This document shows positions 4,630 through 44,327 of a stretch of DNA of 46,412 nt, in pieces. The stretch is from a virus (taxonomy: Duplodnaviria > Caudoviricetes). Position 1 is the first letter of the stretch. Each line of letters begins with the position of its first letter. Both the position numbers and the translations under genes were made by a program. The notes beneath the pieces are model-generated. The model was not told where the DNA came from and ran no database searches. It saw nothing but the letters and a program-made list of their open reading frames with translations. The DNA lies in the IMG/VR virus record IMGVR_UViG_3300037467_000541, positions 1 through 46,412 of that record. One strand, given 5' to 3'.

Positions 4630-4714
4630 GCCCGAGTGGTGAAACTGGTAGACGCAGCGGCTTTAGGTGCCGCCGCCGAGAGGCGTGTCGGTTCGAGTCC
4701 GACCTCGGGCACCA
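4630..4714 (+). tRNA. tRNA-Leu(TAG)
   Basis: Acceptor GCCCGAG/CTCGGGC, D-loop GG, anticodon arm GCGGC-TTTAGGT-GCCGC, long variable arm, GTTCGAGTCC T-loop, encoded ACCA; 85 nt. Confidence 0.95.
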
Positions 4715-15522: not shown

Positions 15523-15541
15523 CTCTCCCTGGCCCTAATCG
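15523..15541 (-). promoter_or_regulatory. Putative phage RNAP promoter (middle genes)
   Basis: Exact 19-bp motif directly downstream of the RNAP gene, where T7 class II promoters begin. Confidence 0.75.
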
Positions 15542-15562: not shown

Positions 15563-18097
15563 TTAGGCAAAGAAGAAGTCCGACTGCTTCACGGCCTCCA
15601 GGTCCAGGTCGCCCACCGGGGGAACCGGGGGGATCTTCTCGGCCAGCTCAGGCTTCACCATGCGGAGCTGCTCGACGATCTCCTCGCGGAAGTGTTCGAG
15701 CACCGGCTGGCTGTACTGGTCGACGAACGCCTCGCGCAGAACTGCGTTGAGAAGCGTCGTGTCAGCCGCGTGCACGCCGAAGGAGTCGTGGATCATGGCG
15801 AAGTGGTGGATGCCGTTGGCCGTTGCGAGGTTGACCGTGTTCAACAGGTGCGAGGCATCGAGCGAGTGCACGAAGTTCGGCGCGACGCCGCTGCCCTGGC
15901 GCCGGCTCGACAGCTTCGAGGAGTCCGACTTCAGCGCGAAGCGGATCCGCTTGCCCCCGACGAAGACCTTGAGGATGCTCTCGGTCTGCTCGCGATAGTC
16001 CTGCAACACCGGCAGCCCGATGGGCGACGTCCAGCGCAGCGGGATTCCTGCCTGCACGGCGATGTCGGCGACGTCCTGGAGCCAGTCCATCGCGCGCCGC
16101 GCCGCGACGACGGTATCGCCGAGCGCGTCCCACACCAGGTTCGACATATAGAGCGCGGCCTTGTACCGGTCGACGTGCTCCGGCAGGTACGCGCCGTGCT
16201 CCTCGTCCAGCTTGTGCAGCGCGTGTTCGATCTGCCCCTTCATGCCGTACCGCGTGGCCGAGTAGCACAGCGTCATCGTCGGCTGCTTGGCGACCTTGCG
16301 GCACACCTTGCCCTGCCACGCTTGCGCCATGTAGTCATCGGTTCCCCCGAGGCAACCATTTGACAAAGCCTGGGCGCGCTCGGCAACCATCGAGTAGATG
16401 TCCGAGGGTCTTTCGGCCGGTACCAGGTTCACCGCAGCGCCGCCGACGGGATCGCGCAAGAGCGCCGAGTAGTGCTGAAGGCCCGAGCATGAGCCGTCCA
16501 TTGCGATAGGCAGGTGCGAGACGTGCGCGTTGCCGTTGAGCTTGTATCCGAGCCAGTCGTAGCACGCGGCGATGGCCTGAAACGGTTTCTCCGCCGTCGT
16601 CCAGAAGCGCGACTCTTGCGGATCGAGCGCGCTCGCCATGATCTCTTCCTCGTGCTCGTGCGTCCACGCGACGCGCTCGTCGAAGGACACCTTGTCGATG
16701 CCCCACAGGCCGGCGATGTGCACCGCGAGCCAGAACGCGCCGTCTTCGCCCAGCGGTTTGCCGTCGGCGAACTCCAGCATCGCGCGGCCGACGTCATCGG
16801 CCTGCGGGTTGAGGTAAGACGCCATCGGGTAGATGCGCCCGCGGAAGTCAAGGTAGTGCGGGAAGTAGATCGCTCGCTCGTCGAGGAAGCGGTACGCGAC
16901 GTAAAGCTTCTGCGACAGGATCACGCGATCCTTTTCGTTCGCCTCGTTCTTCGCGTGCACCTTCGAGGCTTCGGCCTTCCACACCGTCATCGCCTCGCGC
17001 TGCATGGTCGTCATGTCCTTGACCTTCAGCCCTTTCGGGATCCCGACGGGCAGCGGAGGCATCGGGTAGTCGTTTTCGCGCGGCAGGCCCTTGACTGCGC
17101 CACCGCCGCGGGACATCTCCTCCTCGATCACGCCGAGCACGGCCCGATTGATGCGCCAGGGTGTGCGCTGCACGGCGTTCACCGCCGAGAGCACGCGCGT
17201 CAGGTCGACGCCTCCGAGTTCGTCGAGGTAGCCGCGGCTGCGAGTGCGGACCAGCTTCGGCCGGATGACGTCCGTCAGGTAGCCGCCCGAGTACGGGGTG
17301 CGCCAGTCGCGCGGCGGCGCCACCATCGGCAGATGGATCGGCGACAGCAGCTCGCAGCGCCCGTGCATGGACTCCAGCCAGCTCACCGTCTCGGGACGGA
17401 ACACGAGGAACTGCGGGTCGCGCTTGCGGCCCACACTGCGCTGCTCGATGTTGAACAGCTCGGTCGCGTCGAGGGCCAGCTCGACCAGCTTGGTCCCCAG
17501 CAGGATCTTCTCGCGCTTCGACCACGACAGGCTCGCGAGCTGGTACTTCTCGCGGACGTGGGAGAGCACGCCGAGCCGGTGCTTCGCCGAGGTCGACGTT
17601 GCGAGCTGGCGCTCCAACTTCGCGTACAGCCCGCCGTGGTCCTTCGACAGGCGGAGCATCTCCAGGTGCTCGTAGAGCGCGTCGCCCACGTTGTAGGCGA
17701 TGGCGGCCAGGGTCAGGCCGGCGCTCGCCCCGTTGATGGCGTGGCGCGCGGTGAGGTAGGCGGCCTGGAGCGGGTCGACGTTGGCGAGGTAGGGCAGGGC
17801 GCTGTGCTTCTTGCCGGCCTTGCCCGAGCTGGCTTCGACGATGAACTGCTCGATGGACTCGGCGATGGGCTCGACGATCTCGCGAAGCAGGGTCTTGCCG
17901 GGCGCGAGGTCGGCCTCCTCCTTCCGGCCGGGGTCGCGTGCCTGCCACGGCAGCGGCTTCTCGGCGCGGTAGCGGGTGCGCCCGAGCGCCACCGCCTCCT
18001 GCTCGATCTCGGCCTGACGCTCTTCGAGGGTCGTCCCCTCATCGAGCATGTTCAGCAGTCGGTCCCTCTCGGGATCGAAGGATTCCGTGTCGTACAT
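15563..18097 (-). CDS. gp1: Single-subunit DNA-directed RNA polymerase (T7 gp1-like), 844 aa
   Basis: DFRGRIYP, DGSCSGLQH, RKVAKQPTMTLCYS, APNFVHSLDASH, IHDSFG, C-terminal FFFA; ATG at 18097 after the AAGGGAGA SD. Confidence 0.97.
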   Translation of the reverse strand: MYDTESFDPERDRLLNMLDEGTTLEERQAEIEQEAVALGRTRYRAEKPLPWQARDPGRKEEADLAPGKTLLREIVEPIAESIEQFIVEASSGKAGKKHSALPYLANVDPLQAAYLTARHAINGASAGLTLAAIAYNVGDALYEHLEMLRLSKDHGGLYAKLERQLATSTSAKHRLGVLSHVREKYQLASLSWSKREKILLGTKLVELALDATELFNIEQRSVGRKRDPQFLVFRPETVSWLESMHGRCELLSPIHLPMVAPPRDWRTPYSGGYLTDVIRPKLVRTRSRGYLDELGGVDLTRVLSAVNAVQRTPWRINRAVLGVIEEEMSRGGGAVKGLPRENDYPMPPLPVGIPKGLKVKDMTTMQREAMTVWKAEASKVHAKNEANEKDRVILSQKLYVAYRFLDERAIYFPHYLDFRGRIYPMASYLNPQADDVGRAMLEFADGKPLGEDGAFWLAVHIAGLWGIDKVSFDERVAWTHEHEEEIMASALDPQESRFWTTAEKPFQAIAACYDWLGYKLNGNAHVSHLPIAMDGSCSGLQHYSALLRDPVGGAAVNLVPAERPSDIYSMVAERAQALSNGCLGGTDDYMAQAWQGKVCRKVAKQPTMTLCYSATRYGMKGQIEHALHKLDEEHGAYLPEHVDRYKAALYMSNLVWDALGDTVVAARRAMDWLQDVADIAVQAGIPLRWTSPIGLPVLQDYREQTESILKVFVGGKRIRFALKSDSSKLSSRRQGSGVAPNFVHSLDASHLLNTVNLATANGIHHFAMIHDSFGVHAADTTLLNAVLREAFVDQYSQPVLEHFREEIVEQLRMVKPELAEKIPPVPPVGDLDLEAVKQSDFFFA

Positions 18098-18138
18098 AGT
18101 GGTCTCCCTTGTGGCTATGGGGCTCTGCCCCTTCGCAG

Positions 18139-18157
18139 CTCTCCCTGGCCCTAATCG
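18139..18157 (-). promoter_or_regulatory. Putative phage RNAP promoter upstream of the RNAP gene itself
   Basis: Exact 19-bp motif about 40 bp upstream of the start codon. Confidence 0.72.
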
Positions 18158-18171
18158 AGCGCGGGAAAATC

Positions 18172-18187
18172 GTTGCCCCGAGGCAAC
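18172..18187. promoter_or_regulatory. Putative operator GTTGCC-N4-GGCAAC
   Basis: Perfect palindrome 14 bp from the promoter motif. Confidence 0.6.
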
Positions 18188-18190
18188 CAT

Positions 18191-18416
18191 CTGTGCCACG
18201 GGGTGTGTCCAGACGCGGCACACCGGCCGAAACTGTGCCGGCTGTGCCAAGTCCGAAAGCGCTAAGTGATTGGTATCGCTAGACGACCGCTGGATTTAGG
18301 TTGCCCAGCGGTCCCCCCTAAGCAGTTGATTCAGTGGACTTTCGGCGCCGAAACTGTGTCATCTCGCACTGGAGCGGCGAAACCGGTGTTAATGGTTGCC
18401 TCCAGTTTTGACACAG
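18191..18416. other. attP: Putative attP site
   Basis: Core CTGGA-TTTAGGT-T (~18290-18302) inside the inverted repeat GACCGCTGG/CCAGCGGTC. IHF-like sites at 18263-18275 and 18319-18331. Arm-like CTGTGYC repeats, including GCCGAAACTGTG at 18226 and 18347. Adjacent to the integrase 3' end. Confidence 0.75.
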
Positions 18417-19479
18417 CCGTATGCGCCTCCAGCGCGGCGAGCGCGACGCCCATGCTCGACGGGGCCAGGTGCGCGTACCGCTCGGTCGTCTTGATCGAGG
18501 TGTGCCCCAGCCAGTCGCGGACCATGTAGAGGGATACGCCCGCCTGCACCAGCCGGCTCGCGCAGGTATGGCGCAGGGTGTGAAGGGTCACGCCCTTGAT
18601 CTTTGCCCGCTCGCACGCCGTGCGGAACCGCAGGCCCATCCAATGCGTCGTCGAGTAGGCCGGGTTCTTGGCCCGCTCCTGGAGATAGGCGTGCACCGGC
18701 GACGCCAGGATCTTGTCGAGGCTGGCCCTGGCCCGTGTGGTGAGCGGCACGGTCCGGCCGCGATCATTCTTCGTGGACCCGTGCGGGAGCCACACCTTGT
18801 CCCCGAGGTCTTGCTCGGGCGTCAGCATGGCCTCGCTGGCCCGGAGGCCGGTGTCCAGCAGGAAGGGGACCATCGCCAGCATGTACTGCGCGTCGGCGTC
18901 TCCCGGCGCCGCGTAAGCGGCCATGGACGACAGCAGCCGCTCCTCCTCGCCCGTGGTGAGGTAGCGCTCCTTCAGGTTGCGCTCCTTCCATCGGGGGAAC
19001 GGCGGCAACGACTCGATCTCGCCGCGGAGCTTCGCGTCGTTCATCGCCGCGTGGATGCAGGACATCTTTCGGTTGCGCGTGGCCGGTGCATCGCCGTCCC
19101 GCTCCAGCTCGTGACCGTAATCGAGGAGCCGCTGGTATGTGATCGACTTCAGCGGCCAGTAGCCGATGTCTCGGATGAGCTGCTGCACGACGTAGCGCCG
19201 CTCGCGCGCCGACTTTTGATCGGACCAGCGGTCGGCCATCGACTTCTGGAGCGCGTACGCGAGGTTCACCGCATTGCCCGCTTGCTTGCGAGCTTCGGTG
19301 AGCGTGACGGTGCCCAGGAGATGCTCTCGCATCTTTTCGGCAGCAGCTAGTGTGGCGAGCGAGCGCCCTTCGTCAGGCAGACGACGGTCGACCTTTACAC
19401 CGGTCGACAAGCGCTGCCGTTCGTTCGCGGAATCAACGAAGTGGACTTGCCACATTCCTCCGCGCTTGATGAGCTTCAT
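18331..19479 (-). CDS. int: Tyrosine recombinase / phage integrase
   Basis: TGLRASE (R), STKN (K), HTLRHT (HxxR), LGH, TERYAH (Y). Confidence 0.95.
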   Translation of the reverse strand: MKLIKRGGMWQVHFVDSANERQRLSTGVKVDRRLPDEGRSLATLAAAEKMREHLLGTVTLTEARKQAGNAVNLAYALQKSMADRWSDQKSARERRYVVQQLIRDIGYWPLKSITYQRLLDYGHELERDGDAPATRNRKMSCIHAAMNDAKLRGEIESLPPFPRWKERNLKERYLTTGEEERLLSSMAAYAAPGDADAQYMLAMVPFLLDTGLRASEAMLTPEQDLGDKVWLPHGSTKNDRGRTVPLTTRARASLDKILASPVHAYLQERAKNPAYSTTHWMGLRFRTACERAKIKGVTLHTLRHTCASRLVQAGVSLYMVRDWLGHTSIKTTERYAHLAPSSMGVALAALEAHTAVSKLEATINTGFAAPVRDDTVSAPKVH

Positions 19480-19509
19480 TTGGGTGGTCTCCCTTGCGTT
19501 GCATCTGTA

Positions 19510-19875
19510 TCACTCGCCGCGGCCAAATGCCCGCTTCATCGCGCGAGTTAGTATCCGCTCGCCTTCCTTAGATAGGCTCACGACGCGATTCCGCATGTCA
19601 TTAGGATCGAGGTCGACGGTTAGCATTCCTAGGCCATCCTCGCGCTTTACCGCACCAGCAGAGCCAGCTAGGTTCGCAATGATCTTCGAGAGGGTGGGCT
19701 TTAATAGATCGGCCTCGTCCGCAAGTTGCTGTTGATTCGTAGGTACGCCCCCACGCGCCCCGACACTCAGCAGGACAAGTGCCTGCCGAAGTGTCAGGTC
19801 GTGCGAGGTGCTATCGGCGATCTCCTTCAACGCCCTACGGACGGTCGCGATCTGCATGGTGGTGGTGTGGTCCAT
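19510..19875 (-). CDS. MarR-family winged-helix regulator (candidate repressor)
   Basis: LTLRQALVL...QQQLA...KPTLSKIIANL...DPNDMRNRVVSLSKEG. Confidence 0.85.
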   Translation of the reverse strand: MDHTTTMQIATVRRALKEIADSTSHDLTLRQALVLLSVGARGGVPTNQQQLADEADLLKPTLSKIIANLAGSAGAVKREDGLGMLTVDLDPNDMRNRVVSLSKEGERILTRAMKRAFGRGE

Positions 19876-20026
19876 CGTTCCTCGTTTTCCTTACACTGAA
19901 AATGAAACGCCTACCCCCGAGTACCAGCGTGTATGTTGTTTCCCGCTCAGTTGCGGTCCTTGTGAATCCTTCCTCGACTTCCTCTCCGGCCAACAATCCC
20001 TCGACGGCGAAGTCCACGTTTTTCAT
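19835..20026 (-). CDS. Hypothetical protein (63 aa)
   Basis: TAAGGA SD; overlaps the repressor start. Confidence 0.45.
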   Translation of the reverse strand: MKNVDFAVEGLLAGEEVEEGFTRTATERETTYTLVLGGRRFIFSVRKTRNDGPHHHHADRDRP

Positions 20027-20065
20027 AGATGCGTTTCCTTAGGCTCTCTCACTAAAAAGCCATAG

Positions 20066-20081
20066 GGGCACGCCGCTTGCC
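20066..20081 (+). promoter_or_regulatory. sigma54-type promoter for candidate sRNA-1
   Basis: GGGCACGCCGCTTGCC matches GG-N10-GC / GGCACG-N4-TTGC; predicted +1 ~20092. Confidence 0.6.
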
Positions 20082-20091
20082 CGCATCCCAG

Positions 20092-20244
20092 CGGGTTCGG
20101 TTTCCAGTCTAAAGCGGTCTCCCTTGTGGCAACAAGTTCCCAGCGTCAACTTCCGACAGCCGGAAACCGGACTGCCGATGTAGCACGGTGGCCGGGGCGT
20201 CGGAACATGACGGTGGTCACAATTCCGACGAGCGGCCCCTTTTT
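20092..20244 (+). ncRNA. Candidate antisense sRNA-1 carrying the anti-RBS seed GGUCUCCCUUGUGGC
   Basis: 11-bp closing stem 20095-20105/20162-20172 with a G-U pair on +, seed at 20116-20130, then a long hairpin 20194-20239 and T5. Confidence 0.65.
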
Positions 20245-20295
20245 GGTTTCTGCCGGGTTTAACCCTTCAGGCGCGCGGCATTAACTGAGGCCGCT

Positions 20296-20496
20296 CTACG
20301 CACCCTCCTGCGTCATCTCGTCGATGACAATGGTTTCCTTGTCGCCACGGGTCACGCCGCTCTCCCGCAAGAAGCGGGCGCGGTCGAACCTGGGATTGGT
20401 ACCGGCGAGCGCGGTTGCCAGAGCCGCGACCACACTAGGTCGCGCCTTTGCCTCCCGCAGGGTGCCGGCGATGAGTTGGAAGTCACGCCGAGTCAT
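20296..20496 (-). CDS. Hypothetical early protein (66 aa)
   Basis: GGGAGACC SD; MTRRDFQLIA...TNPRFDRARFL. Confidence 0.75.
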   Translation of the reverse strand: MTRRDFQLIAGTLREAKARPSVVAALATALAGTNPRFDRARFLRESGVTRGDKETIVIDEMTQEGA

Positions 20497-20665
20497 CGTT
20501 GAGGTCTCCCGGCTCGAACTCCATCGGGGAGCCGCACAGGTCGCACTCGGGCACATGCCCGCCGCGCAAGATGTCGGAGAGCGCTTCGTCGATTGCGCGG
20601 CACTTCGGGTTGGTGCACTGGGTCTCGATCCAGCGCAGCTTTCGTTTTGCGGCGTAGCTACTCAC
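20483..20665 (-). CDS. Small zinc-finger protein (60 aa)
   Basis: CTNPKC...CDLC; GGAGG SD; GTGA coupling. Confidence 0.6.
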   Translation of the reverse strand: MSSYAAKRKLRWIETQCTNPKCRAIDEALSDILRGGHVPECDLCGSPMEFEPGDLNDDSA

Positions 20666-21330
20666 GACACGCCCTCCGCGAACTGCAACAGGTAGTCGAC
20701 TGCGGCTTCGGCCTTCGGGAGCGCCGCGCGCCACGCCGCTTCGGCCTTGGCGGGCGACCCGAGCGAAACCGTCCAGTTGAGCAGGTAGGCCGCACGCTCT
20801 TGGTACTGCGGGTCCGCACCGATGGCGTCGAGCAGCAGCGCCGATCCGATCTCGGCGATCAGCTCTTCCTCGGCGTAGCCGTCCGGCTTGATGTCGTGCG
20901 CCCGCTCGAAGAGCGTTTGCCCGATGGCAGGACGCGACATGCGGCCAGCTTCCTGCGTCCAGTGGATCAGCTCGTGCGCCAGTGTCGCGACGCGATCCGC
21001 TTCACTGCGGAATGCTTCGGGCATCGGCTGGAGAATCCACAGGGAGCCGAAGGGGACCGGCTCGCCTCTCTTGAGGGCGCTATTGAACGCGGCGACATTC
21101 GCCGACTCGACGCCGCCGTAGTAGATCGGCGGGCGCGCGTTTGCGAGGATCGCATCGAGCGTCCGATAGCCGGTCGGGATGTAGTAGCCGAGGTCGGTAG
21201 GCGGTGGCGCGTTGTGGTCGCGACGGATGAAGTCGTCCGTTTCTCCGTGCGCCCGCGCCCACGCGGGATCGGTTGCCTTCAGCGTTCGGAACAAACGCTC
21301 CTCGGCCGGGTAATAGTCGTGGTGTTTCAT
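20662..21330 (-). CDS. ArdC-like zincin metallopeptidase (MPTase-type) domain protein
   Basis: TLAHELIHWT...YAEEELIAEIGS...AAYL..W. Confidence 0.8.
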   Translation of the reverse strand: MKHHDYYPAEERLFRTLKATDPAWARAHGETDDFIRRDHNAPPPTDLGYYIPTGYRTLDAILANARPPIYYGGVESANVAAFNSALKRGEPVPFGSLWILQPMPEAFRSEADRVATLAHELIHWTQEAGRMSRPAIGQTLFERAHDIKPDGYAEEELIAEIGSALLLDAIGADPQYQERAAYLLNWTVSLGSPAKAEAAWRAALPKAEAAVDYLLQFAEGVS

Positions 21331-21405
21331 GGTGGGTGGTCTCCCTTGTCCGGGCGTGCTTGCCCGCATCGGCGCCCGCGTGTGCAGGCGCCGAAACTGG
21401 TCAGC

Positions 21406-21729
21406 TCACTTCGCGTCGTGGATCAGGCGCGTGGTCGTGCGGTTGGCCTCCAGCCAATCCGTCACCAGCGGCAGCGCGCGTTCGTAATCGCGGCCGGCGA
21501 CGGTAAGCCAGCGCTTGCCCGCGAATACGTTGGACGTGGTGCCGAAGCGCACGCGCGAGCGGATGCGCGCAGGACGCAGGACCTCGGCGCGCACGCGCTC
21601 GATCTCTGCGCGCGACTCGTCCGAGCGTGCGGGGCTATCCGGCGCCATGCCGGTGTCACTCGCGCCCGCTACTGCGTACTGCGGTATCCAGTAGCCGCGC
21701 CATCCGTCGATTTTGTGGAAGCGGATCAC
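21406..21729 (-). CDS. Hypothetical early protein (107 aa)
   Basis: GGGAG SD; GTGA coupling. Confidence 0.7.
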   Translation of the reverse strand: MIRFHKIDGWRGYWIPQYAVAGASDTGMAPDSPARSDESRAEIERVRAEVLRPARIRSRVRFGTTSNVFAGKRWLTVAGRDYERALPLVTDWLEANRTTTRLIHDAK

Positions 21730-22004
21730 GACACGCGCTCCCGCAACAGCGCGCGGTTGAACTGAATCGTCCCTTCGCGAGAGCGCTGGTCGCCCTTCGG
21801 CATCTGCGCGCCGTAGTGCGCCATGACGTTTTCGAGCGTCGCTGTTGTCAGGTCCAGCGCATCGGCGAAGACCTCGAAGTCTGCCCGCGCCAGTCGCGCC
21901 TCACGCGCACGTTTGGCGGCGCGAATAGAACGCTCTTCTGCGAGCGCACGCGCGCCCTTGCCCGCGCCGGGGCCGATTCCGTTGATTGCCTTGATGGTGT
22001 GCAT
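21726..22004 (-). CDS. Hypothetical early protein (92 aa)
   Basis: Starts at a repeat-borne RBS. Confidence 0.75.
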   Translation of the reverse strand: MHTIKAINGIGPGAGKGARALAEERSIRAAKRAREARLARADFEVFADALDLTTATLENVMAHYGAQMPKGDQRSREGTIQFNRALLRERVS

Positions 22005-22075
22005 GGTGGTCTCCCTTGTTCGGCCAACGTCGGCCGGTGATGCGCCCGCCGAAACAGGCGCATCCCCTGCGAACG

Positions 22076-22561
22076 TCAGCGCTCGCAGCCGCGCACGAAT
22101 GCGCGCACGAACGGCCGCGGTTCGCGCTGGTCTCGCGAGTGCTCCGCATCGCGCGACGGCTCGGAATCCGCCGCGGTGATGGCCGCAAACGCATTCGCGA
22201 TGAACTCCGGGTCGACCGTCGCGGATTCGATACGCGCAACGGCGTCCGCAGTCGTGCCCGCATACCTGCCGTCCTGCGGAATGGCGACGATCTCGTCGTC
22301 ATCGGCGCCCTCGGAGTCGTAGTCGACGATTGCGACGTCGACCGGCACGGTGCCGTCAGACAGTACGGCTTGGACAAGCCCGCCTTCGAGGTTCACCAGG
22401 ACGCGCACGGGCTGCTGAAGCGCACGCTCGGCTTGCGCGTGCAGCGTTGCCCAGTCTCCGTGCGTCGCCCACTCTTCCGGGTTCGTGACGCGCTGGAGAT
22501 GCTCAACGGTTCGCATGTAGTCGCGGAGCGCGTCCGCGACGGTGGTAGGTGTTGCTCGCAT
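22076..22561 (-). CDS. Hypothetical early protein (161 aa), acidic core
   Basis: Starts at a repeat-borne RBS; VLVNLEGGLVQAV...VAIVDYD. Confidence 0.75.
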   Translation of the reverse strand: MRATPTTVADALRDYMRTVEHLQRVTNPEEWATHGDWATLHAQAERALQQPVRVLVNLEGGLVQAVLSDGTVPVDVAIVDYDSEGADDDEIVAIPQDGRYAGTTADAVARIESATVDPEFIANAFAAITAADSEPSRDAEHSRDQREPRPFVRAFVRGCER

Positions 22562-22632
22562 TGGTGGTCTCCCTTGTACGGCCAATGGCGGCCGGTGATG
22601 CCCGCGACATGCACGGGCATCCCCTGCGGTCA

Positions 22633-22833
22633 TCAGTGCGTCATGCGACGGTGCACATAGCCCGCCTCGATCAGCGCGGCAGCGGTGCGCCCGTAGTGGC
22701 CTTGCAGTTGCCACACGGTGCCGTCGTCGACGAGCGACTGGAAAAACGCGACCATCTCGTCGCGGTCCATCTCGCCCGCCTCGTACTGCATGATTTGGAA
22801 AACGCGGTCCGGGTGTGTTTCTGCGGTTTTCAT
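22633..22833 (-). CDS. Hypothetical early protein (66 aa)
   Basis: Repeat-borne RBS; IMQYEAGEM...FQSLVDDGTVWQLQGHYGRTA. Confidence 0.8.
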   Translation of the reverse strand: MKTAETHPDRVFQIMQYEAGEMDRDEMVAFFQSLVDDGTVWQLQGHYGRTAAALIEAGYVHRRMTH

Positions 22834-22907
22834 GGGTGGTCTCCCTTGTGGTTCCCCGTGGGGAACCGTTGCGGTGATGGCGAAGGTAGCGCACAGGCTA
22901 CCACGGG

Positions 22908-23261
22908 TCAAGCGGCTGCACGCGCAGGCGCCGGTGCGGTGACGAAGTAGCCCGCGACCGCTTCAACTTCGAGCACTACGGATTCCTGCCCGAAGGCTTC
23001 GCGCACGCGCTCTGCGGTCTCTACCGGGTCCCTGCGGCCGGACACGTCGTCGGCCAGGATCACGAACCGCTTGCCCGCTTCCGTGACTAGCTCGCCTTTG
23101 CCGTTGACCCATCCGCCGTAGGTGTCGGTTTCCGTGTAGCCCCCGAAGGTGGCCGCAAGGTCGCCGCGCACGGCGGCGAGGACGGTGGCGAGCGTGCCCG
23201 CGTCGATAGGTTCGCCGGAAGCGTCGAAGCCTGCGCCGGTGGTGATGGTAATGCGTTGCAT
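22908..23261 (-). CDS. Hypothetical early protein (117 aa)
   Basis: Repeat-borne RBS; FGGYT...GGW...FGQESV. Confidence 0.78.
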   Translation of the reverse strand: MQRITITTGAGFDASGEPIDAGTLATVLAAVRGDLAATFGGYTETDTYGGWVNGKGELVTEAGKRFVILADDVSGRRDPVETAERVREAFGQESVVLEVEAVAGYFVTAPAPARAAA

Positions 23262-23335
23262 GGTGGTCTCCCTTGTTCGGCCGACGGTGGCCGGTGATGC
23301 CCGCGACGGTGCGCCGTGGGCATCCCCTGCAATCG

Positions 23336-23575
23336 TCAAGCGTTCTCGGCGATGTCACGTTCCCACGCGCGGCGGATCAGGTCGCGCGCTGCGTCGATCA
23401 CGTCACGCGCTGCTGCGCGCTCGTCGCGCCAGTACAGGAAGCGTTGCAGGCTTAAGCGTGGCGACGCTTTGCGAAGGGCGCGCAGGCGCACCACGTCGCG
23501 CGCGTCGCGCTCTGCGCGGATCGTCTCCGCTTGATCGAGCGTCACGGGTTCCCATGCGGTGAGTGTCGGTTCCAT
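23336..23575 (-). CDS. Hypothetical early protein (79 aa)
   Basis: Bounded exactly by two repeats. Confidence 0.72.
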   Translation of the reverse strand: MEPTLTAWEPVTLDQAETIRAERDARDVVRLRALRKASPRLSLQRFLYWRDERAAARDVIDAARDLIRRAWERDIAENA

Positions 23576-23646
23576 GGTGGGTCTCCCTTGTGCGGCCGAC
23601 GGTGGCCGGTGATGCGCCCCACGCGGAGGCGCATCCCCTGCAATCG

Positions 23647-24033
23647 TCAGGACAGCGCGAGCGCGGACAGGATCACGATTAGCTGCGCCTCGGGCGTGCA
23701 CAGCGCGTTGCTCACGAACTGCGACCAGCTCCAAGGCTGTCCCGCTTGCTTCGCGCGTGCGCCCGGCAACGTGTCGCCGATGTACGCACCCAGCATGATC
23801 GGCAGCAGCAGGACCGCGGCGAGATGCCAGAGCACGCCCGACACCAGCCCGAGACCTCCGCAGAACTCGCCACCGATCACGGCATAGGCGAGCGGGCGCG
23901 GAACGTGCGTGGTCCGGCAAATGAAGGGGACCACGCGCGAGCGCACGGCCGGAAGGAAGCATTTACGCGCGCCGGTCACGGCGAAAAAGACACCCGTGGA
24001 AACGCGCAGGACATCGAGCGCGAGCGCATCCAT
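23647..24033 (-). CDS. DoxX-like membrane protein
   Basis: LRVSTGVFFAVTGARK...EFCGGLGLVSG...AAVLLLPIMLGA; GGAGGT SD. Confidence 0.7.
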   Translation of the reverse strand: MDALALDVLRVSTGVFFAVTGARKCFLPAVRSRVVPFICRTTHVPRPLAYAVIGGEFCGGLGLVSGVLWHLAAVLLLPIMLGAYIGDTLPGARAKQAGQPWSWSQFVSNALCTPEAQLIVILSALALS

Positions 24034-24034
24034 A

Positions 24035-24526
24035 TCACGCGACCTCCAGAACGCGCGGCGCACCTAGCGGCGCGTCGCCTTCGGCATCGAGCGCAACGGC
24101 GATGGATTCCATGCGGAGCGCGTCACCGGTCGCGCCTTCATCGGCGAGCGCGGCGAGGTTCGCGAACGCGCGCGACAGGCTGCGCCCCATCTCGGCGAGG
24201 GACTGGCCGTTTTCCTGCGCCAGCGTGATCGCCATGTTGTAGACCGCGACCATGTAGCAGCCGGGACACAAGGGCTGCGCATCGGGCCCGAAGGTCTGCG
24301 CATAGGTGCGCGTCCCGTCGTTGAGCGCGTCCGTGCGCATCATCGTATCGAGGTAGCCCGCGAGCGTTGCACCAGTCTCCGCGCGCTGCCCGTCTTGAAT
24401 GTGGATGAGGTCGCACGCGCCGCGGTAGACCATGCCGGTCTCCGCATTGCGGGTGCGCGTGGTGGTGGTGGGCAGTGCTACCGCTTCACCAGCGGAGGCG
24501 CCTGCTGCTGCGATGAAATCAAACAT
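24035..24526 (-). CDS. Hypothetical early protein (163 aa)
   Basis: Repeat-borne RBS; contains CPGC. Confidence 0.72.
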   Translation of the reverse strand: MFDFIAAAGASAGEAVALPTTTTRTRNAETGMVYRGACDLIHIQDGQRAETGATLAGYLDTMMRTDALNDGTRTYAQTFGPDAQPLCPGCYMVAVYNMAITLAQENGQSLAEMGRSLSRAFANLAALADEGATGDALRMESIAVALDAEGDAPLGAPRVLEVA

Positions 24527-24596
24527 GGTGGTCTCCCTTGTTCGGCCTGATGGCGGCCGGTGGTGCGCCCTCGCGAGGAAGGCGCACCGCCTGCGG

Positions 24597-24812
24597 TCAT
24601 CCGTGCAACTCGCCCGATGCGATGCGCGCCAGCGTGCAAACGACCAGCAGCCCCGCGAGCGTCGCGATGTACTGGTGCGCGCCCGCAATCTCCGCGCTGT
24701 GATAGGCGAGTTCCCCGAAGACGCCCGCGTGTCCCGCACGCTTGAGCGCGTGGCCGTGGTGGCGATGGAAGAGGCGCCAATGTGCCTTGAGGTGACGTGT
24801 CTGCCGTTTCAT
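24597..24812 (-). CDS. Small His-rich membrane protein (71 aa)
   Basis: GAGGG SD; C-terminal hydrophobic segment. Confidence 0.55.
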   Translation of the reverse strand: MKRQTRHLKAHWRLFHRHHGHALKRAGHAGVFGELAYHSAEIAGAHQYIATLAGLLVVCTLARIASGELHG

Positions 24813-24822
24813 GTCGAAGCCC

Positions 24823-24987
24823 TCAGGGAGACACCGCGACGCCGACCAGCAGCAGCGCGAGGAAGAGAGCGCACCGGGCGAACATGCCAGCGGGCGCACC
24901 GGGCGCGAACGCAGAGAGCGCGGCGAAGTCGTCGGCCGTCTGCGCGTAAAGCGCCAGCTCGGAAAGGTGGGTGAGTCGGTCGTGCAT
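24823..24987 (-). CDS. Small membrane protein (54 aa), first gene of the early array
   Basis: Repeat-borne RBS; C-terminal TM. Confidence 0.65.
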   Translation of the reverse strand: MHDRLTHLSELALYAQTADDFAALSAFAPGAPAGMFARCALFLALLLVGVAVSP

Positions 24988-25031
24988 GGTGGTCTCCCTT
25001 GTGGCGCCGACGCCCGGCGCACCCGTAGGAA

Positions 25032-25048
25032 TGCAGGAAGCGTGCCAA
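25032..25048 (-). promoter_or_regulatory. sigma54-type promoter of the early operon
   Basis: TTGGCACGCTTCCTGCA versus consensus TGGCACG-N4-TTGCW; predicted +1 ~25021 coincides with the first repeat hairpin. Confidence 0.72.
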
Positions 25049-25091
25049 TCGTAAACCGTTGAGCGGACGCAACGGTCGCCCGAAGGGAACC

Positions 25092-25136
25092 GACGCGCAG
25101 CGTCAGAAGTTGACGCAGAGCGTCCGAAGGTGACGC
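25092..25136. promoter_or_regulatory. Tandem palindromes GACGC-N3-GCGTC (candidate enhancer or operator)
   Basis: Full sites at 25092-25104 and 25112-25124, half-site at 25132-25136; 20-bp period. Confidence 0.55.
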
Positions 25137-25138
25137 GG

Positions 25139-25486
25139 TTAGCTAGTCGCCAGCGCGACCGCGGCGAGCGCGACCACAGCCAGCGCAACGCGCGGCAGGC
25201 GCCCCAGCCAGAGCGCGAGGGCAGCCCCCAGCCCCCATGCGGCGCCCACGGCCGGCGCGTGCGGCTCGATCAGGCGCGTTGCGCCCACCGTGACGCAGAG
25301 CCCCACCGCGAGCCCCGCGAGCGCATAGGGCAGCAGCAGCGCCAGTGCCCACAGGAGACGCGAGCGGGCACCGTCGAGGGCATCGGCAGCGGGCGCCCAC
25401 GGTGCGCCCTGAGGTGTCCGTGTGGTGTCCTGAGGGCCGGCCCCAGCGGTGGCCGTGCGGTGTCCTTTCGGGAACCTTGCGGGCAT
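25139..25486 (-). CDS. Putative membrane protein (115 aa)
   Basis: GGAGAG SD; three hydrophobic segments. Confidence 0.5.
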   Translation of the reverse strand: MPARFPKGHRTATAGAGPQDTTRTPQGAPWAPAADALDGARSRLLWALALLLPYALAGLAVGLCVTVGATRLIEPHAPAVGAAWGLGAALALWLGRLPRVALAVVALAAVALATS

Positions 25487-25492
25487 GGCGTG

Positions 25493-25510
25493 CTCTCCGT
25501 GGCCCTAAGC
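25493..25510 (-). promoter_or_regulatory. Degenerate phage-promoter motif near the genome end
   Basis: TTAGGGCCACGGAGAG (one mismatch in the core). Confidence 0.45.
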
Positions 25511-26104
25511 AAAAAAACAGGGCACCGCGAGGACGAACGCAAACCGCGGGCCAGTCAGGCGCAGAGCGTGCACCCGGTGGCCGTCAGGATCACGTCAGGG
25601 CACCAGCGCACAGCATCAGACATCCAGTGCAGGGCCCTTAGGAATCAACAGGTTGCCCCTCGGACCGTGCCATGGCGTGCCAGCAGGCGCCCCAGCGGTG
25701 GCCCGTCGGCCCCGTTCGAACGCAGGCCGGGCGACCCCCCACGGGGGATTCTGGCCGCGCCGCGGTGGATCGAGACGCCTCGCAATTTCTCGTGAAAATC
25801 TAGCCCCCCGTGCCATTGGTCATGCCCAGGGGACCTCTTAAGGCCCCTCGGGCTTTCCACATGGATCCGCGTGCGCGCCGTCACAGTTTCCCATTCATTT
25901 TCCAGCCAGCAACACAAGTCGGTTCTGTGTAGCGTGAAGACTCATGAGGGAGACCAATCGCTGTGCCTGGGGGGAACCCGAGGGTTCCTTTCGGTATGAC
26001 CACTACCACTACACCCATACCCATCCCATAGGGGTGTCCCCTAGGAGCACCGTCAGGTGCTCCACAGGGTCCCCTTAAGGGGGCGCGCGTGCGCGCGTAC
26101 TAGT

Positions 26105-26250
26105 TATGGGTGTCGGCTACGTGGTGTTCTTTCAGTCCGCCTCCGGCCGGGGGACGACCCCGACCAAGGGAGACCAATCCATCGGGAGGATCGGCGCCGC
26201 CCGACCGGAGGGGACGTCTGGAGTGTAGCCCGACGCTGCCCGACACGAAC
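26105..26250 (-). ncRNA. Candidate antisense sRNA-2 with the anti-RBS seed in a terminal loop
   Basis: Long hairpin (26210-26201/26150-26141 plus inner stems, G-U pairs on -) with loop CUCCCGAUGGAUUGGUCUCCCUU. 5' GUGUCGG can pair with 3' CCGACAC. Confidence 0.62.
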
Positions 26251-26260
26251 ATTACGTTCA

Positions 26261-26276
26261 CGCAAGTCGTGTGCCG
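26261..26276 (-). promoter_or_regulatory. sigma54-type promoter for candidate sRNA-2
   Basis: CGGCACACGACTTGCG matches GG-N10-GC; predicted +1 ~26250. Confidence 0.58.
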
Positions 26277-26288
26277 TTGGTCGCATTG

Positions 26289-27992
26289 CTACCGCCGTAG
26301 AGCGCGGTTGGTCATGCTGAAGCCCTGGCGCGGGTCCTTGCCGCCGTACCACTGGCGGATGAACTCGCGACGCATCTTCTCCCGCTCGGCCTCCAGGTGG
26401 GCCGCTTCGGCCGCTTGGGCGTCCTGCTGGAGCTGGGCGCGGAAGTAGCGCACGCCGTGGGCGAGGATGTCCACGCGGTCGTCTTGCTTCAGGGAGTCGC
26501 GGTCGCGGGTGATGTGCGTGAGCTGGTAGAGCAGCGAGTTCGTGCCGGCGAGGATGTCGGCCTTCGCGCACGCGGCGTCGATGACCAGGCGGTGCTGGTT
26601 GAGCACCGGCTCCAAGTCCTCGATGATGCGGCGCTCCTTCTGCCCGGCCGCCTTCACTTCGGTCAGCGTCACCGGGTAGGTCTTCGCGACCACAGGCGCG
26701 AGCAGCGCCAGGAACATGCCGTCGCCGAAGTTCGACTCGATCAGGATCTCATTGACCTCGTGATCGCGCGCGACGTTGGCGAGCCCTTGCAGCGTCGCCT
26801 CGCCGTAGCCGTCGGTGAACCCTCCGGTGGCCTTGAGGAAGAGCTGCCCGGCCATGTGGAAGAGCACCACGTAGGCCGTCTCGTTCTTGCCGCGGCCCGA
26901 GGGGTCGATGACCATGATGCGGCCCTGGTAGGGCAGCATCGTGTCGCTCGCGTACATCGGCCGGTACAGGCGGTCGCCGTTGAAGCCCACGTTGTCGATC
27001 TGCGCGTCATTGCGCGGATCGCTCGTCCACACCAGCTTCGCCGGTGCGAGCTTCAGGTCGACGTCCATGCAGATGAAGTCGGACGTGCGGAGCGGATAGC
27101 GCAGCGCATCGCTCAGGCTCGTGTCGAGCATGAACTGCAAGGCGAAGCCGCTGGCGCCGTAAGACGCGCGCCGCTCCGCCAGGTCCATGTCGGTGAACCG
27201 CTCGGGATCCGTCGAGTGCCCGGCGAGCGCCGGATTCTTGTCGAGGTCCTCGGCGATGTCGGGCGCGAGGTTGCCGCCGTACTTCGCGCGCTGCTCCGGC
27301 GTCGGATACAGCGCCGGCCAGATGCGGATCTTGTAGCCGCGCCCTTCGAGCAAGCGGTACACGCTCTGCTCGGTCTGCGGCGTGCCGAGATACACGACGT
27401 CGCCGCCCGGCATCAGGATCGCGTCGAACTCCTTGATGGCCTCCGCGAGCTTCTCGCGCATGACCTCGGTCAGAGAGTTCTTCGGATTCTCGATGTCGTC
27501 CGCGACGATCAGCGATGCACGGCCACCGGTGATGCCACCAGTGATACCCGCAGCGCGCACTGAGGGCGCCTGGTGGGCTTCTGAAGGGCCCACGTCGAAT
27601 GCCAGCACGCTATCGCGTTGGCCTTCGCGCGGACGCAGGAATTGCAGCAGCTCGATCTCGTCGATCAAGCGGCGAGTGAACGTCGCGAACTCAGTCGCCT
27701 TGTACTCGTTCGCCGAGACGACGAGGATGCGCTCGTTCGGATTCCGATAGAGTCGCCACAGCACGAAGGCCGCGGTGATCCACGACTTGCCGAGGCCGCG
27801 GAAGCCCTGCGTCATCGAGCGACGCGGGCCATGCTGGAGCCAGAGCGCGACGGCGTACTGCCGCAGCGTCGGCTTCAGCCCCAGGTGCCGCAGGATGAAC
27901 CACAGGAAGTACCGGAAGTCGTCGTGGAGCTTCTTCTCGGAGTCCGTCTGGACCCACTCGGGGTAGGCGACGGGGGTCTTGGGGGACTTCAT
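26289..27992 (-). CDS. terL: Terminase large subunit (T7 gp19-like)
   Basis: QGFRGLGKSWITAAFVLW, ITGGRASLIVADDIE, YLGTPQ, IDPSGRGKNET, DDRVD. Confidence 0.96.
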   Translation of the reverse strand: MKSPKTPVAYPEWVQTDSEKKLHDDFRYFLWFILRHLGLKPTLRQYAVALWLQHGPRRSMTQGFRGLGKSWITAAFVLWRLYRNPNERILVVSANEYKATEFATFTRRLIDEIELLQFLRPREGQRDSVLAFDVGPSEAHQAPSVRAAGITGGITGGRASLIVADDIENPKNSLTEVMREKLAEAIKEFDAILMPGGDVVYLGTPQTEQSVYRLLEGRGYKIRIWPALYPTPEQRAKYGGNLAPDIAEDLDKNPALAGHSTDPERFTDMDLAERRASYGASGFALQFMLDTSLSDALRYPLRTSDFICMDVDLKLAPAKLVWTSDPRNDAQIDNVGFNGDRLYRPMYASDTMLPYQGRIMVIDPSGRGKNETAYVVLFHMAGQLFLKATGGFTDGYGEATLQGLANVARDHEVNEILIESNFGDGMFLALLAPVVAKTYPVTLTEVKAAGQKERRIIEDLEPVLNQHRLVIDAACAKADILAGTNSLLYQLTHITRDRDSLKQDDRVDILAHGVRYFRAQLQQDAQAAEAAHLEAEREKMRREFIRQWYGGKDPRQGFSMTNRALRR

Positions 27993-44249: not shown

Positions 44250-44327
44250 TGGTGGAGAGGGTCGGAGTCGAACCGACGACCTCGGGGTTATGAGCCCCGC
44301 GCGCTGCCAAGCTGCGCTACGCTCTCC
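44250..44327 (-). tRNA. tRNA with CAT anticodon (Met, initiator-like body; atypical acceptor stem)
   Basis: D-stem GCGC/GCGC, anticodon arm CGGGG-CTCATAA-CCCCG, T-arm GTCGG-TTCGACT-CCGAC, ACCA end. Confidence 0.88.

Follow-up and report, generated by a model that had tools for sequence, protein, structure and literature searches.

The RNAs c4 of phages P1/P7 and sar of P22 are known to pair at the ribosome-binding site (RBS) of one antirepressor message (PMC12197685). We describe here a non-coding locus, denoted unit 1, of a temperate T7-like phage. It is a real, conserved RNA element of a leader/anti-leader system and a candidate variant of phage antisense control. Unit 1 resembles c4 and sar in being a structured phage element from the immunity region that is complementary to the RBS of the phage's own messages. 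While c4 and sar have one antirepressor target, the seed of unit 1 matches the leader of ten genes. In c4/sar the pairing region is displayed in loops; the unit 1 seed is predicted to be paired in a stem and that of a second element, unit 2, lies in a weakly paired apex. No match to an antirepressor family was found among the early proteins tested. The same source also describes AgvB, a phage-encoded mimic of an sRNA target that can serve as a model for the minus-strand decoy weighed below; AgvB sponges a host sRNA, whereas here the sponge and the sRNA would both be encoded by the phage.

For silencing in temperate T7-like phages, only a MarR-type regulator has been proposed so far. The reported antisense RNA of LUZ100 is located in the structural region (PMC10134795), and LUZ100 and Caulobacter phage S2B share with our phage the order small ORF-MarR-integrase-RNA polymerase (RNAP), a phage promoter before RNAP and a tRNA-Leu of their own. 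An 8-mer common to at least three early leaders was absent from S2B, jiawei, LUZ100, Lo5R7ANS and RHEph01, so the shared-leader design is clade-specific among the phages tested. In the literature outside subscription papers, we found no phage RNA aimed at a shared early leader.

The closest parallel comes from the cluster K mycobacteriophages, in which an asymmetric 12-13-nt repeat (start-associated sequence, SAS) is placed at the RBS of at least 10 non-structural genes and is conserved beyond its pairing with 16S, with 11-19 copies at gene starts and, in K1 phages, one reversed copy away from a gene start (PMC3203893 and PMC11373665). The latter describes the function of SAS as unknown, still so in 2024, reports that late transcription of Adephagia begins in the reversed-SAS gap, and lists gp39 as Hfq-like (PMC11373665). 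Our phage likewise has a leader repeat in one orientation at the RBS of ten non-structural genes and a rare reversed copy. The sequence, host group and phage family are unrelated, however, and the cluster K consensus was not matched here. Extended SAS copies carry inverted repeats that hold promoters; the upstream repeats here fold as two hairpins.

A shared leader ahead of ten genes

The window, which is the whole stretch of DNA analysed, comprises a complete virus record of 46,412 bp with direct terminal repeats. The phage is T7-like and temperate, and nearly every gene lies on the minus strand, including those for RNAP, a tyrosine integrase, a MarR-like regulator, primase/helicase, DNA polymerase, capsid and terminase. 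The nearest named RNAPs, those of jiawei and S2B, are 44-45% identical, and the phage DNA occurs in soil metagenomes; among the sequencing runs listed for it, none was of RNA. Since positions 19684-20378 are identical in a contig from a second study, the unit 1 region is not an assembly error. The gap that holds unit 1 is bounded by the last early gene, which ends at 20296, and by a conserved 63-codon ORF, beyond which the following genes are arranged:

15563..18097, minus strand: T7-like RNA polymerase
18331..19479, minus strand: tyrosine integrase, leader with the motif
19510..19875, minus strand: MarR-like repressor, leader without the motif
19835..20026, minus strand: conserved ORF of 63 codons that overlaps the start of MarR from upstream, its leader likewise without the motif

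Several other features were observed around these genes. A 19-bp repeat on the minus strand at 1810-1828, 15523-15541, 18139-18157 and 25493-25511, one copy of which lies ahead of RNAP and a weaker one near the genome end, is likely the phage RNAP promoter. Between integrase and RNAP there is a short core at 18289-18301, with similar cores in the related loci L041 and L042, which we take to resemble the anticodon arm of tRNA-Leu(UAG). The phage carries its own tRNA-Leu(TAG) at 4630-4714 (plus strand) and a tRNA-Met at 44250-44327 (minus strand); the core is likely attP within a host tRNA-Leu, with the phage tRNA-Leu as a spare copy.

The preliminary description of this DNA had noted that a 15-mer of unit 1 recurs at 18101 and 24991, antisense to the leaders of RNAP and the first early gene. 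These exact matches were confirmed (18101, 20116 and 24991), and at up to 3 mismatches the 15-mer had 15 matches compared with 1.7 expected. Over 11-12 nt, its core is complementary in reverse to a leader that occupies the ribosome-binding position of ten genes, namely eight early genes, integrase and RNAP, which corresponds to 10/59 gene starts as called by a simple heuristic. The leader is absent from MarR and from the 63-codon ORF upstream of it. The copies are as follows:

18101..18115, minus strand: leader copy of RNAP, 15-nt match
19486..19496, minus strand: leader copy of integrase, 11-nt match
21338..21349, minus strand: leader copy of the anti-restriction-like gene, 12 nt
22008..22019, minus strand: leader copy of an early gene, 12 nt
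22566..22577, minus strand: leader copy of an early gene, 12 nt
22838..22851, minus strand: leader copy of an early gene, 14 nt
23265..23276, minus strand: leader copy of an early gene, 12 nt
23580..23592, minus strand: leader copy of an early gene, 13 nt
24530..24541, minus strand: leader copy of an early gene, 12 nt
24991..25005, minus strand: leader copy of the first motif-bearing early gene, 15 nt

Duplexes between the unit 1 core and these ten leaders had energies of -28 to -37, compared with -11 for MarR. At 20116, by contrast, the minus strand shows no start codon after the leader copy, which is the sole start-less one in the window; no start codon is present at Shine-Dalgarno (SD) distance after this copy in the window, L040 or L044. 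A short ORF behind it was considered and rejected, as there is no conserved start and the window has an in-frame stop before the 63-codon ORF; in L040 an in-frame ATG lies 30 nt past the motif. Apart from this, a recurring cassette lies between the early genes at 21330-25005 (minus strand), in which a pair of GC-rich hairpins comes ahead of the common leader; such cassettes are possibly processing sites or recombination modules. The anti-restriction-like early gene at 20662-21330 (minus strand) has a zincin-like domain.

Conservation and folding of unit 1

Relatives were collected by two routes. A MarR alignment of 18 proteins, in which the closer homologues (P0002-P0008) were 67-84% identical, led to five metagenome loci (L040-L044) from four distinct phages, L040 and L041 being in agreement, and a leader-pattern search led to one complete relative, L049 (RNAP 68%); L043 was excluded from folding and most partner tests because of Ns. 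The leader is common to all relatives, the integrase carries the motif in 5/5 related phages, and L049 has 9 leader copies plus one reversed copy after terL. The preliminary description had stressed complementarity to the RNAP RBS. The leader is common to ten genes, and the 11-mer is missing from the RNAP leader in all three relatives that have one, L041 with its identical core, L042 and L049, so RNAP-specific targeting is unsupported.

Homologues of the 63-codon ORF are present in L040, L042, L043, L044 and L049, with zero Pfam matches. Considered as an RNA chaperone, it was predicted to form a four-strand model with a pLDDT of 77 from 5 sequences, and the best Z was 4.3; these values speak neither for nor against that role.

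The elements of unit 1 are as follows:

20054..20244, plus strand: unit 1, a candidate anti-leader RNA whose putative ends are an A5 run and a T5 run
20059..20078, plus strand: partner arm (domain HP0), a degenerate leader copy that makes G-U pairs with the seed and includes the sigma54-like motif
20114..20141: invariant 28-nt core, comprising the anti-leader seed (20116-20130) on the plus strand and the 3' arm of the minus-strand hairpin HP2; on the minus strand it is the start-less leader copy
20124..20178, minus strand: hairpin HP2, which on the mRNA strand immediately precedes the start-less leader copy
20186..20244: hairpin HP1 with T5 on the plus strand, a possible plus-strand terminator whose base changes fit minus-strand folding

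The core is identical at 28/28 positions in L040/L041, and the L040 flanks are identical at 33/102 positions on the MarR-ward side and at 66/104 on the other; by a crude estimate with 51% background identity, the chance of such conservation is ~2e-6. The start-less copy is found at the place of unit 1 in 3/6 distinct phages (window, L040 and L044) and is absent from L042, L043 and L049. At that position L042 (2130-2250) and L043 (520-640) have a different conserved non-coding element of ~80 nt, which lacks the anti-leader core and has short C/U-rich segments. Conservation of the core could also reflect a DNA-level site, possibly a repressor operator, or the leader of a gene since lost. Within the core, an imperfect palindrome of 14 bp (20123-20136) is invariant in the window and L040. 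It occurs once in the genome, however, and its near matches are no more numerous than chance would give (6 compared with 8.25), and the way in which the hairpins persist, by G-U pairs and compensatory changes, suggests that they fold as single strands. Exact conservation is in turn unexpected of a relic, and we regard either origin as highly improbable.

Broader searches gave the following results. The 18-mer of the unit 1 core had 0 matches in viral contigs, BLAST of units 1 and 2 against 50,697 named phage records returned short chance matches only, and the region 18000-25100 gave 14 short matches to named phages. No related loci were found with the MarR alignment in viral and genome contigs or with the integrase in viral contigs, and the integrase alignment returned nothing in genome contigs; these integrase/MarR searches found no prophage and no host. 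A scan for RNAP yielded 13 distant loci, all without the leader. The Rfam covariance models (C4 and all others), a check suggested in the preliminary description, were run over 18000-27000 with E values of up to 5 allowed, and no family matched either unit.

The GG-N10-GC motif at 20067-20080 is present, as GGCAC-N5-TTGC, and had been taken for the promoter of the unit. Read as a sigma54 promoter, it would drive a 150-nt RNA from ~20092 aimed at the RNAP ribosome-binding site; the -24/-12 match is good, and an RNA starting at 20092 would bind the RNAP (-30.2) and first-gene (-33.4) leaders strongly. However, 3/14 bases of the motif are kept in L040, so the promoter is unsupported; the motif is absent from L040-L044 and coincides with the pairing partner of the core, and the RNAP match is lost in L041 despite the identical core. 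GG-N10-GC has 2 matches in the window, with as many in 9/100 shuffles, and of 22 matches of the motif-plus-core pattern in viral contigs, 0 adjoin a MarR or RNAP homologue. As such, we give the sigma54 version hardly any credence. No conserved plus-strand promoter for unit 1 was found.

The span from A-run to T-run is 191 nt in the window and 189 nt in L040. The fold of 20051-20250 is -88.6 (z -4.4) on the plus strand and -82.5 (z -2.2) on the minus strand, whereas the whole domain of L040 favours the minus strand (-89.1 vs -80.0). In the 5' domain, 20056-20136 folds at -37.9 (z -4.9) on plus vs -28.0 (z -0.8) on minus; HP0 of L040 has the same topology and is strand-neutral (-29.8 vs -32.0). 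For 33 gene-sense copies at six loci, the 70 nt to each side were searched on both strands for the strongest pairing partner. A local partner was found only for the three start-less copies (z -4.5, -2.8, -3.2), while none of the 30 start-linked copies went below z -1.7. In L040 this partner test favours minus (p 0.004 vs 0.35 for plus). The hairpin of L044 at the unit 1 position is -55.1 with 9 G-U pairs on the antisense strand, compared with -31.9 and 1 G-U pair on the other. An 11-bp stem described earlier, 20095-20105/20162-20172, does exist with 10 Watson-Crick pairs and one G-U pair on the plus strand, but it is not conserved, its 5' arm being kept at 4/11 positions in L040.

The 3' hairpins behave differently. 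HP2 in the window is -26.0 with 5 G-U pairs on minus and -14.1 with 1 G-U pair on plus, and is neutral in L040. HP1 is -30.9 (minus) vs -30.2 (plus) in the window and -36.0 (minus) vs -26.8 (plus) in L040, and it is followed by a T-run in both phages (T5 in the window, T4 in L040). A terminator scan missed HP1, which its loop and stem limits exclude. Of the proposed hairpin-T5 terminator, the hairpin and the T5 end at 20244 are there, and the G-U changes fit the minus strand. The two-sequence consensus of the 3' hairpins is -38.4 on minus vs -29.95 on plus. Among the minus-strand pairs of the 3' two-thirds, 36/36 hold in both phages, with 9 one-sided G-U changes and 2 compensatory ones; the one-sided changes on plus number 2, a difference that rests on two sequences and is not significant in the shuffle control (134/500). 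TTCCGAC is repeated at 20151 and 20223, with GTCGGAA at 20199, as had been reported, and 20136-20246 has two plus-strand folds (-48.7 and -43.6 kcal/mol).

The strand evidence, from the suggested folding of both strands, is split: the plus strand is favoured by the 5' domain, the mRNA strand by HP1 and HP2. In the simplest reading, two overlapping structures would meet in the core, the left half of which would belong to the plus-strand stem and the right half to HP2 on the minus strand.

The long irregular hairpins right before the SD-like motif on minus, together with the lack of a start codon at SD distance in the window, L040 and L044, would suit a leader that processes or stabilises the lysogeny message. 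Untranslated ribosome-binding 5' stabilisers occur in Bacillus phage and cry messages. Here, hairpins for a double-strand nuclease would be followed by a ribosome-binding sequence that guards the 5' end without translation, with no antisense role. This leaves unit 2, the L044 hairpin and the partner arms found at orphan copies only unexplained, and we consider it improbable.

Unit 2 and the readings of unit 1

Two further anti-leader copies lie beyond the early genes:

26140..26211, minus strand (late-gene strand): unit 2, a hairpin that closely follows terL and carries the anti-leader sequence apically, with an invariant core at 26159-26183
25946..25959, minus strand: third, partial anti-leader copy, unstructured (z -0.3) and not seen in relatives

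Conservation of unit 2 was first seen in L049, a locus found independently through the leader pattern. Across the window, L049, L070 and L071 (four distinct phages), 25 columns are invariant and the arms vary, with 4/3/3/5 G-U pairs on the anti-leader strand vs 0/1/0/0 on the other and an energy advantage of the anti-leader strand of 6.4 to 12.6 kcal/mol. The unit 2 18-mer matched viral contigs directly after a terL homologue in 4/4 cases, one of which is the L049 contig and two of which are nearly one phage. The unit 2 core and the L042 integrase leader are complementary over a stretch of 19 nt, and the core pairs with the start-less site of unit 1 at -25.0; cofolding of unit 2 with the leaders gave ~0 net energy by a method that bars pairing into a closed hairpin loop, so this value speaks neither way. 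Of all the evidence, unit 2 argues most strongly that an anti-leader RNA is made in this clade, and it is better supported as an antisense RNA than unit 1. Separately, a second GG-N10-GC match at 26262-26275 (minus strand) lies before unit 2 and has no counterpart in L049, where the unit 2 hairpin, by eye, begins ~10 nt past the terL stop.

For unit 1, we favour the reading that its plus strand yields an anti-leader RNA of ~190 nt, which would silence the early genes and the integrase and spare MarR; we put its probability at roughly 0.45. The earlier proposal of a plus-strand antisense RNA therefore survives as the single best reading, with comparative support in the conserved core, the G-U-weakened partner arm, the L044 antisense hairpin and the unit 2 hairpin, while its promoter and its RNAP-centred target fail and the 11-bp stem is not conserved. 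Cofolding of the full-length plus RNA gave net gains of -17.1 for the RNAP leader, -15.9 for the first early leader and -9.7 for another early leader, and of -3.2 for the integrase leader, -1.0 for MarR and -4.2 for the capsid control. Against a plus-strand RNA stand the G-U pattern of HP1/HP2, the better minus fold of the whole L040 domain, a start-less copy in just 3/6 distinct phages and no conserved plus promoter found. The integrase gain is also no better than that of the capsid control, the RNAP leader match is gone in 3/3 relatives, and the minus layout of two hairpins and then a leader is the ordinary early-leader layout.

That layout belongs to a different explanation, in which HP1/HP2 on the minus (mRNA) strand present the start-less leader as a target or decoy for unit 2 RNA or a leader-binding protein, and binding switches read-through into the 63-codon ORF-MarR-integrase operon, whose repressor leader is without the motif. 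The G-U pattern of both hairpins, the resemblance to other early leaders and the pairing of the unit 2 core at this site speak for it. Moreover, on the minus strand the motif can pair with a downstream arm, which a U-run follows or overlaps in both phages, and minus is the direction of early transcription. It does not explain, however, why the partner arm of the window works on the plus strand (z -4.9) or why the L044 hairpin folds on the antisense strand, and L049 has unit 2 without a start-less copy. We regard the target/decoy explanation as the main, if somewhat unlikely, alternative, and it and the plus-strand RNA are not mutually exclusive.

In the favoured plus-strand reading, the unit 1 RNA would pair with the shared leaders and block their translation. 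Its seed may be held by the weaker G-U partner arm, a leader mimic, which the true leader would displace. The RNA would start at or before ~20058 and end at the T5 run at 20244; with such a start, the GG-N10-GC motif would lie inside the RNA and therefore not be its promoter. Its source in the lysogen is presumably a host promoter that is divergent from the 63-codon ORF-MarR-integrase operon, and the RNA would silence leaky or incoming early messages with the repressor spared, which would fit a role in lysogeny, the timing being our inference. The opposite strand is probably transcribed too by early read-through, folding HP1 and HP2; we propose that all 28 core bases are fixed because the minus strand also folds these hairpins. 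An RNA of this kind would also be cis-antisense at its own locus, and unit 2 at the late transcript end would take over this function towards the end of the lytic cycle.

Reversed repeats in cluster K phages

Considering the likeness to SAS, we analysed the reversed K1 copy and found that it forms the 10-nt loop of a long hairpin on the gene strand, which lies between genes close to the right end, at L081:560-616 in Adephagia and L082:548-604 in Anaya. The region is present in 152 records; in 11 of these, chosen mainly from the more divergent ones, the loop was exact in 6, degenerate in 3 and absent in 2. The hairpins of the exact-loop six show one-sided changes in 6/17 pairs and compensatory changes in 2. 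The five phages without an exact loop keep 13-16 SAS, with no matching change between SAS and loop among them, and the isolated SAS hairpin shows a mixed strand preference. The cluster K parallel is suggestive, not decisive.

A broader, rather speculative idea, which we think is more probably wrong than right, is that unrelated temperate phages converged on one design, a private leader on an early-gene set combined with hairpin RNAs that hold its complement, one RNA switching the set off. Our clade would have two such RNAs, one in the immunity region for lysogeny and one at the late-transcript end to turn early into late expression, and the SAS of cluster K would be explained in the same way. 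If the anti-leader reading is true, an antisense RNA with one seed and many targets would add a post-transcriptional layer and amount to a phage regulon whose members are marked by a private leader. The function of SAS would become testable through one hairpin loop in Adephagia, and portable leader/anti-leader pairs could be useful synthetic regulators.

Two further observations were made by eye. A motif block at 25730-25810 is also found in L049:5930-5990, L071, S2B, jiawei, LUZ100 and Lo5R7ANS near the right end, and is probably a terminal repeat or packaging region. In addition, S2B and jiawei have common short non-coding motifs upstream of the gene at the MarR position (L001:3930-3985, L002:3955-4005), which are candidates for a promoter or operator.
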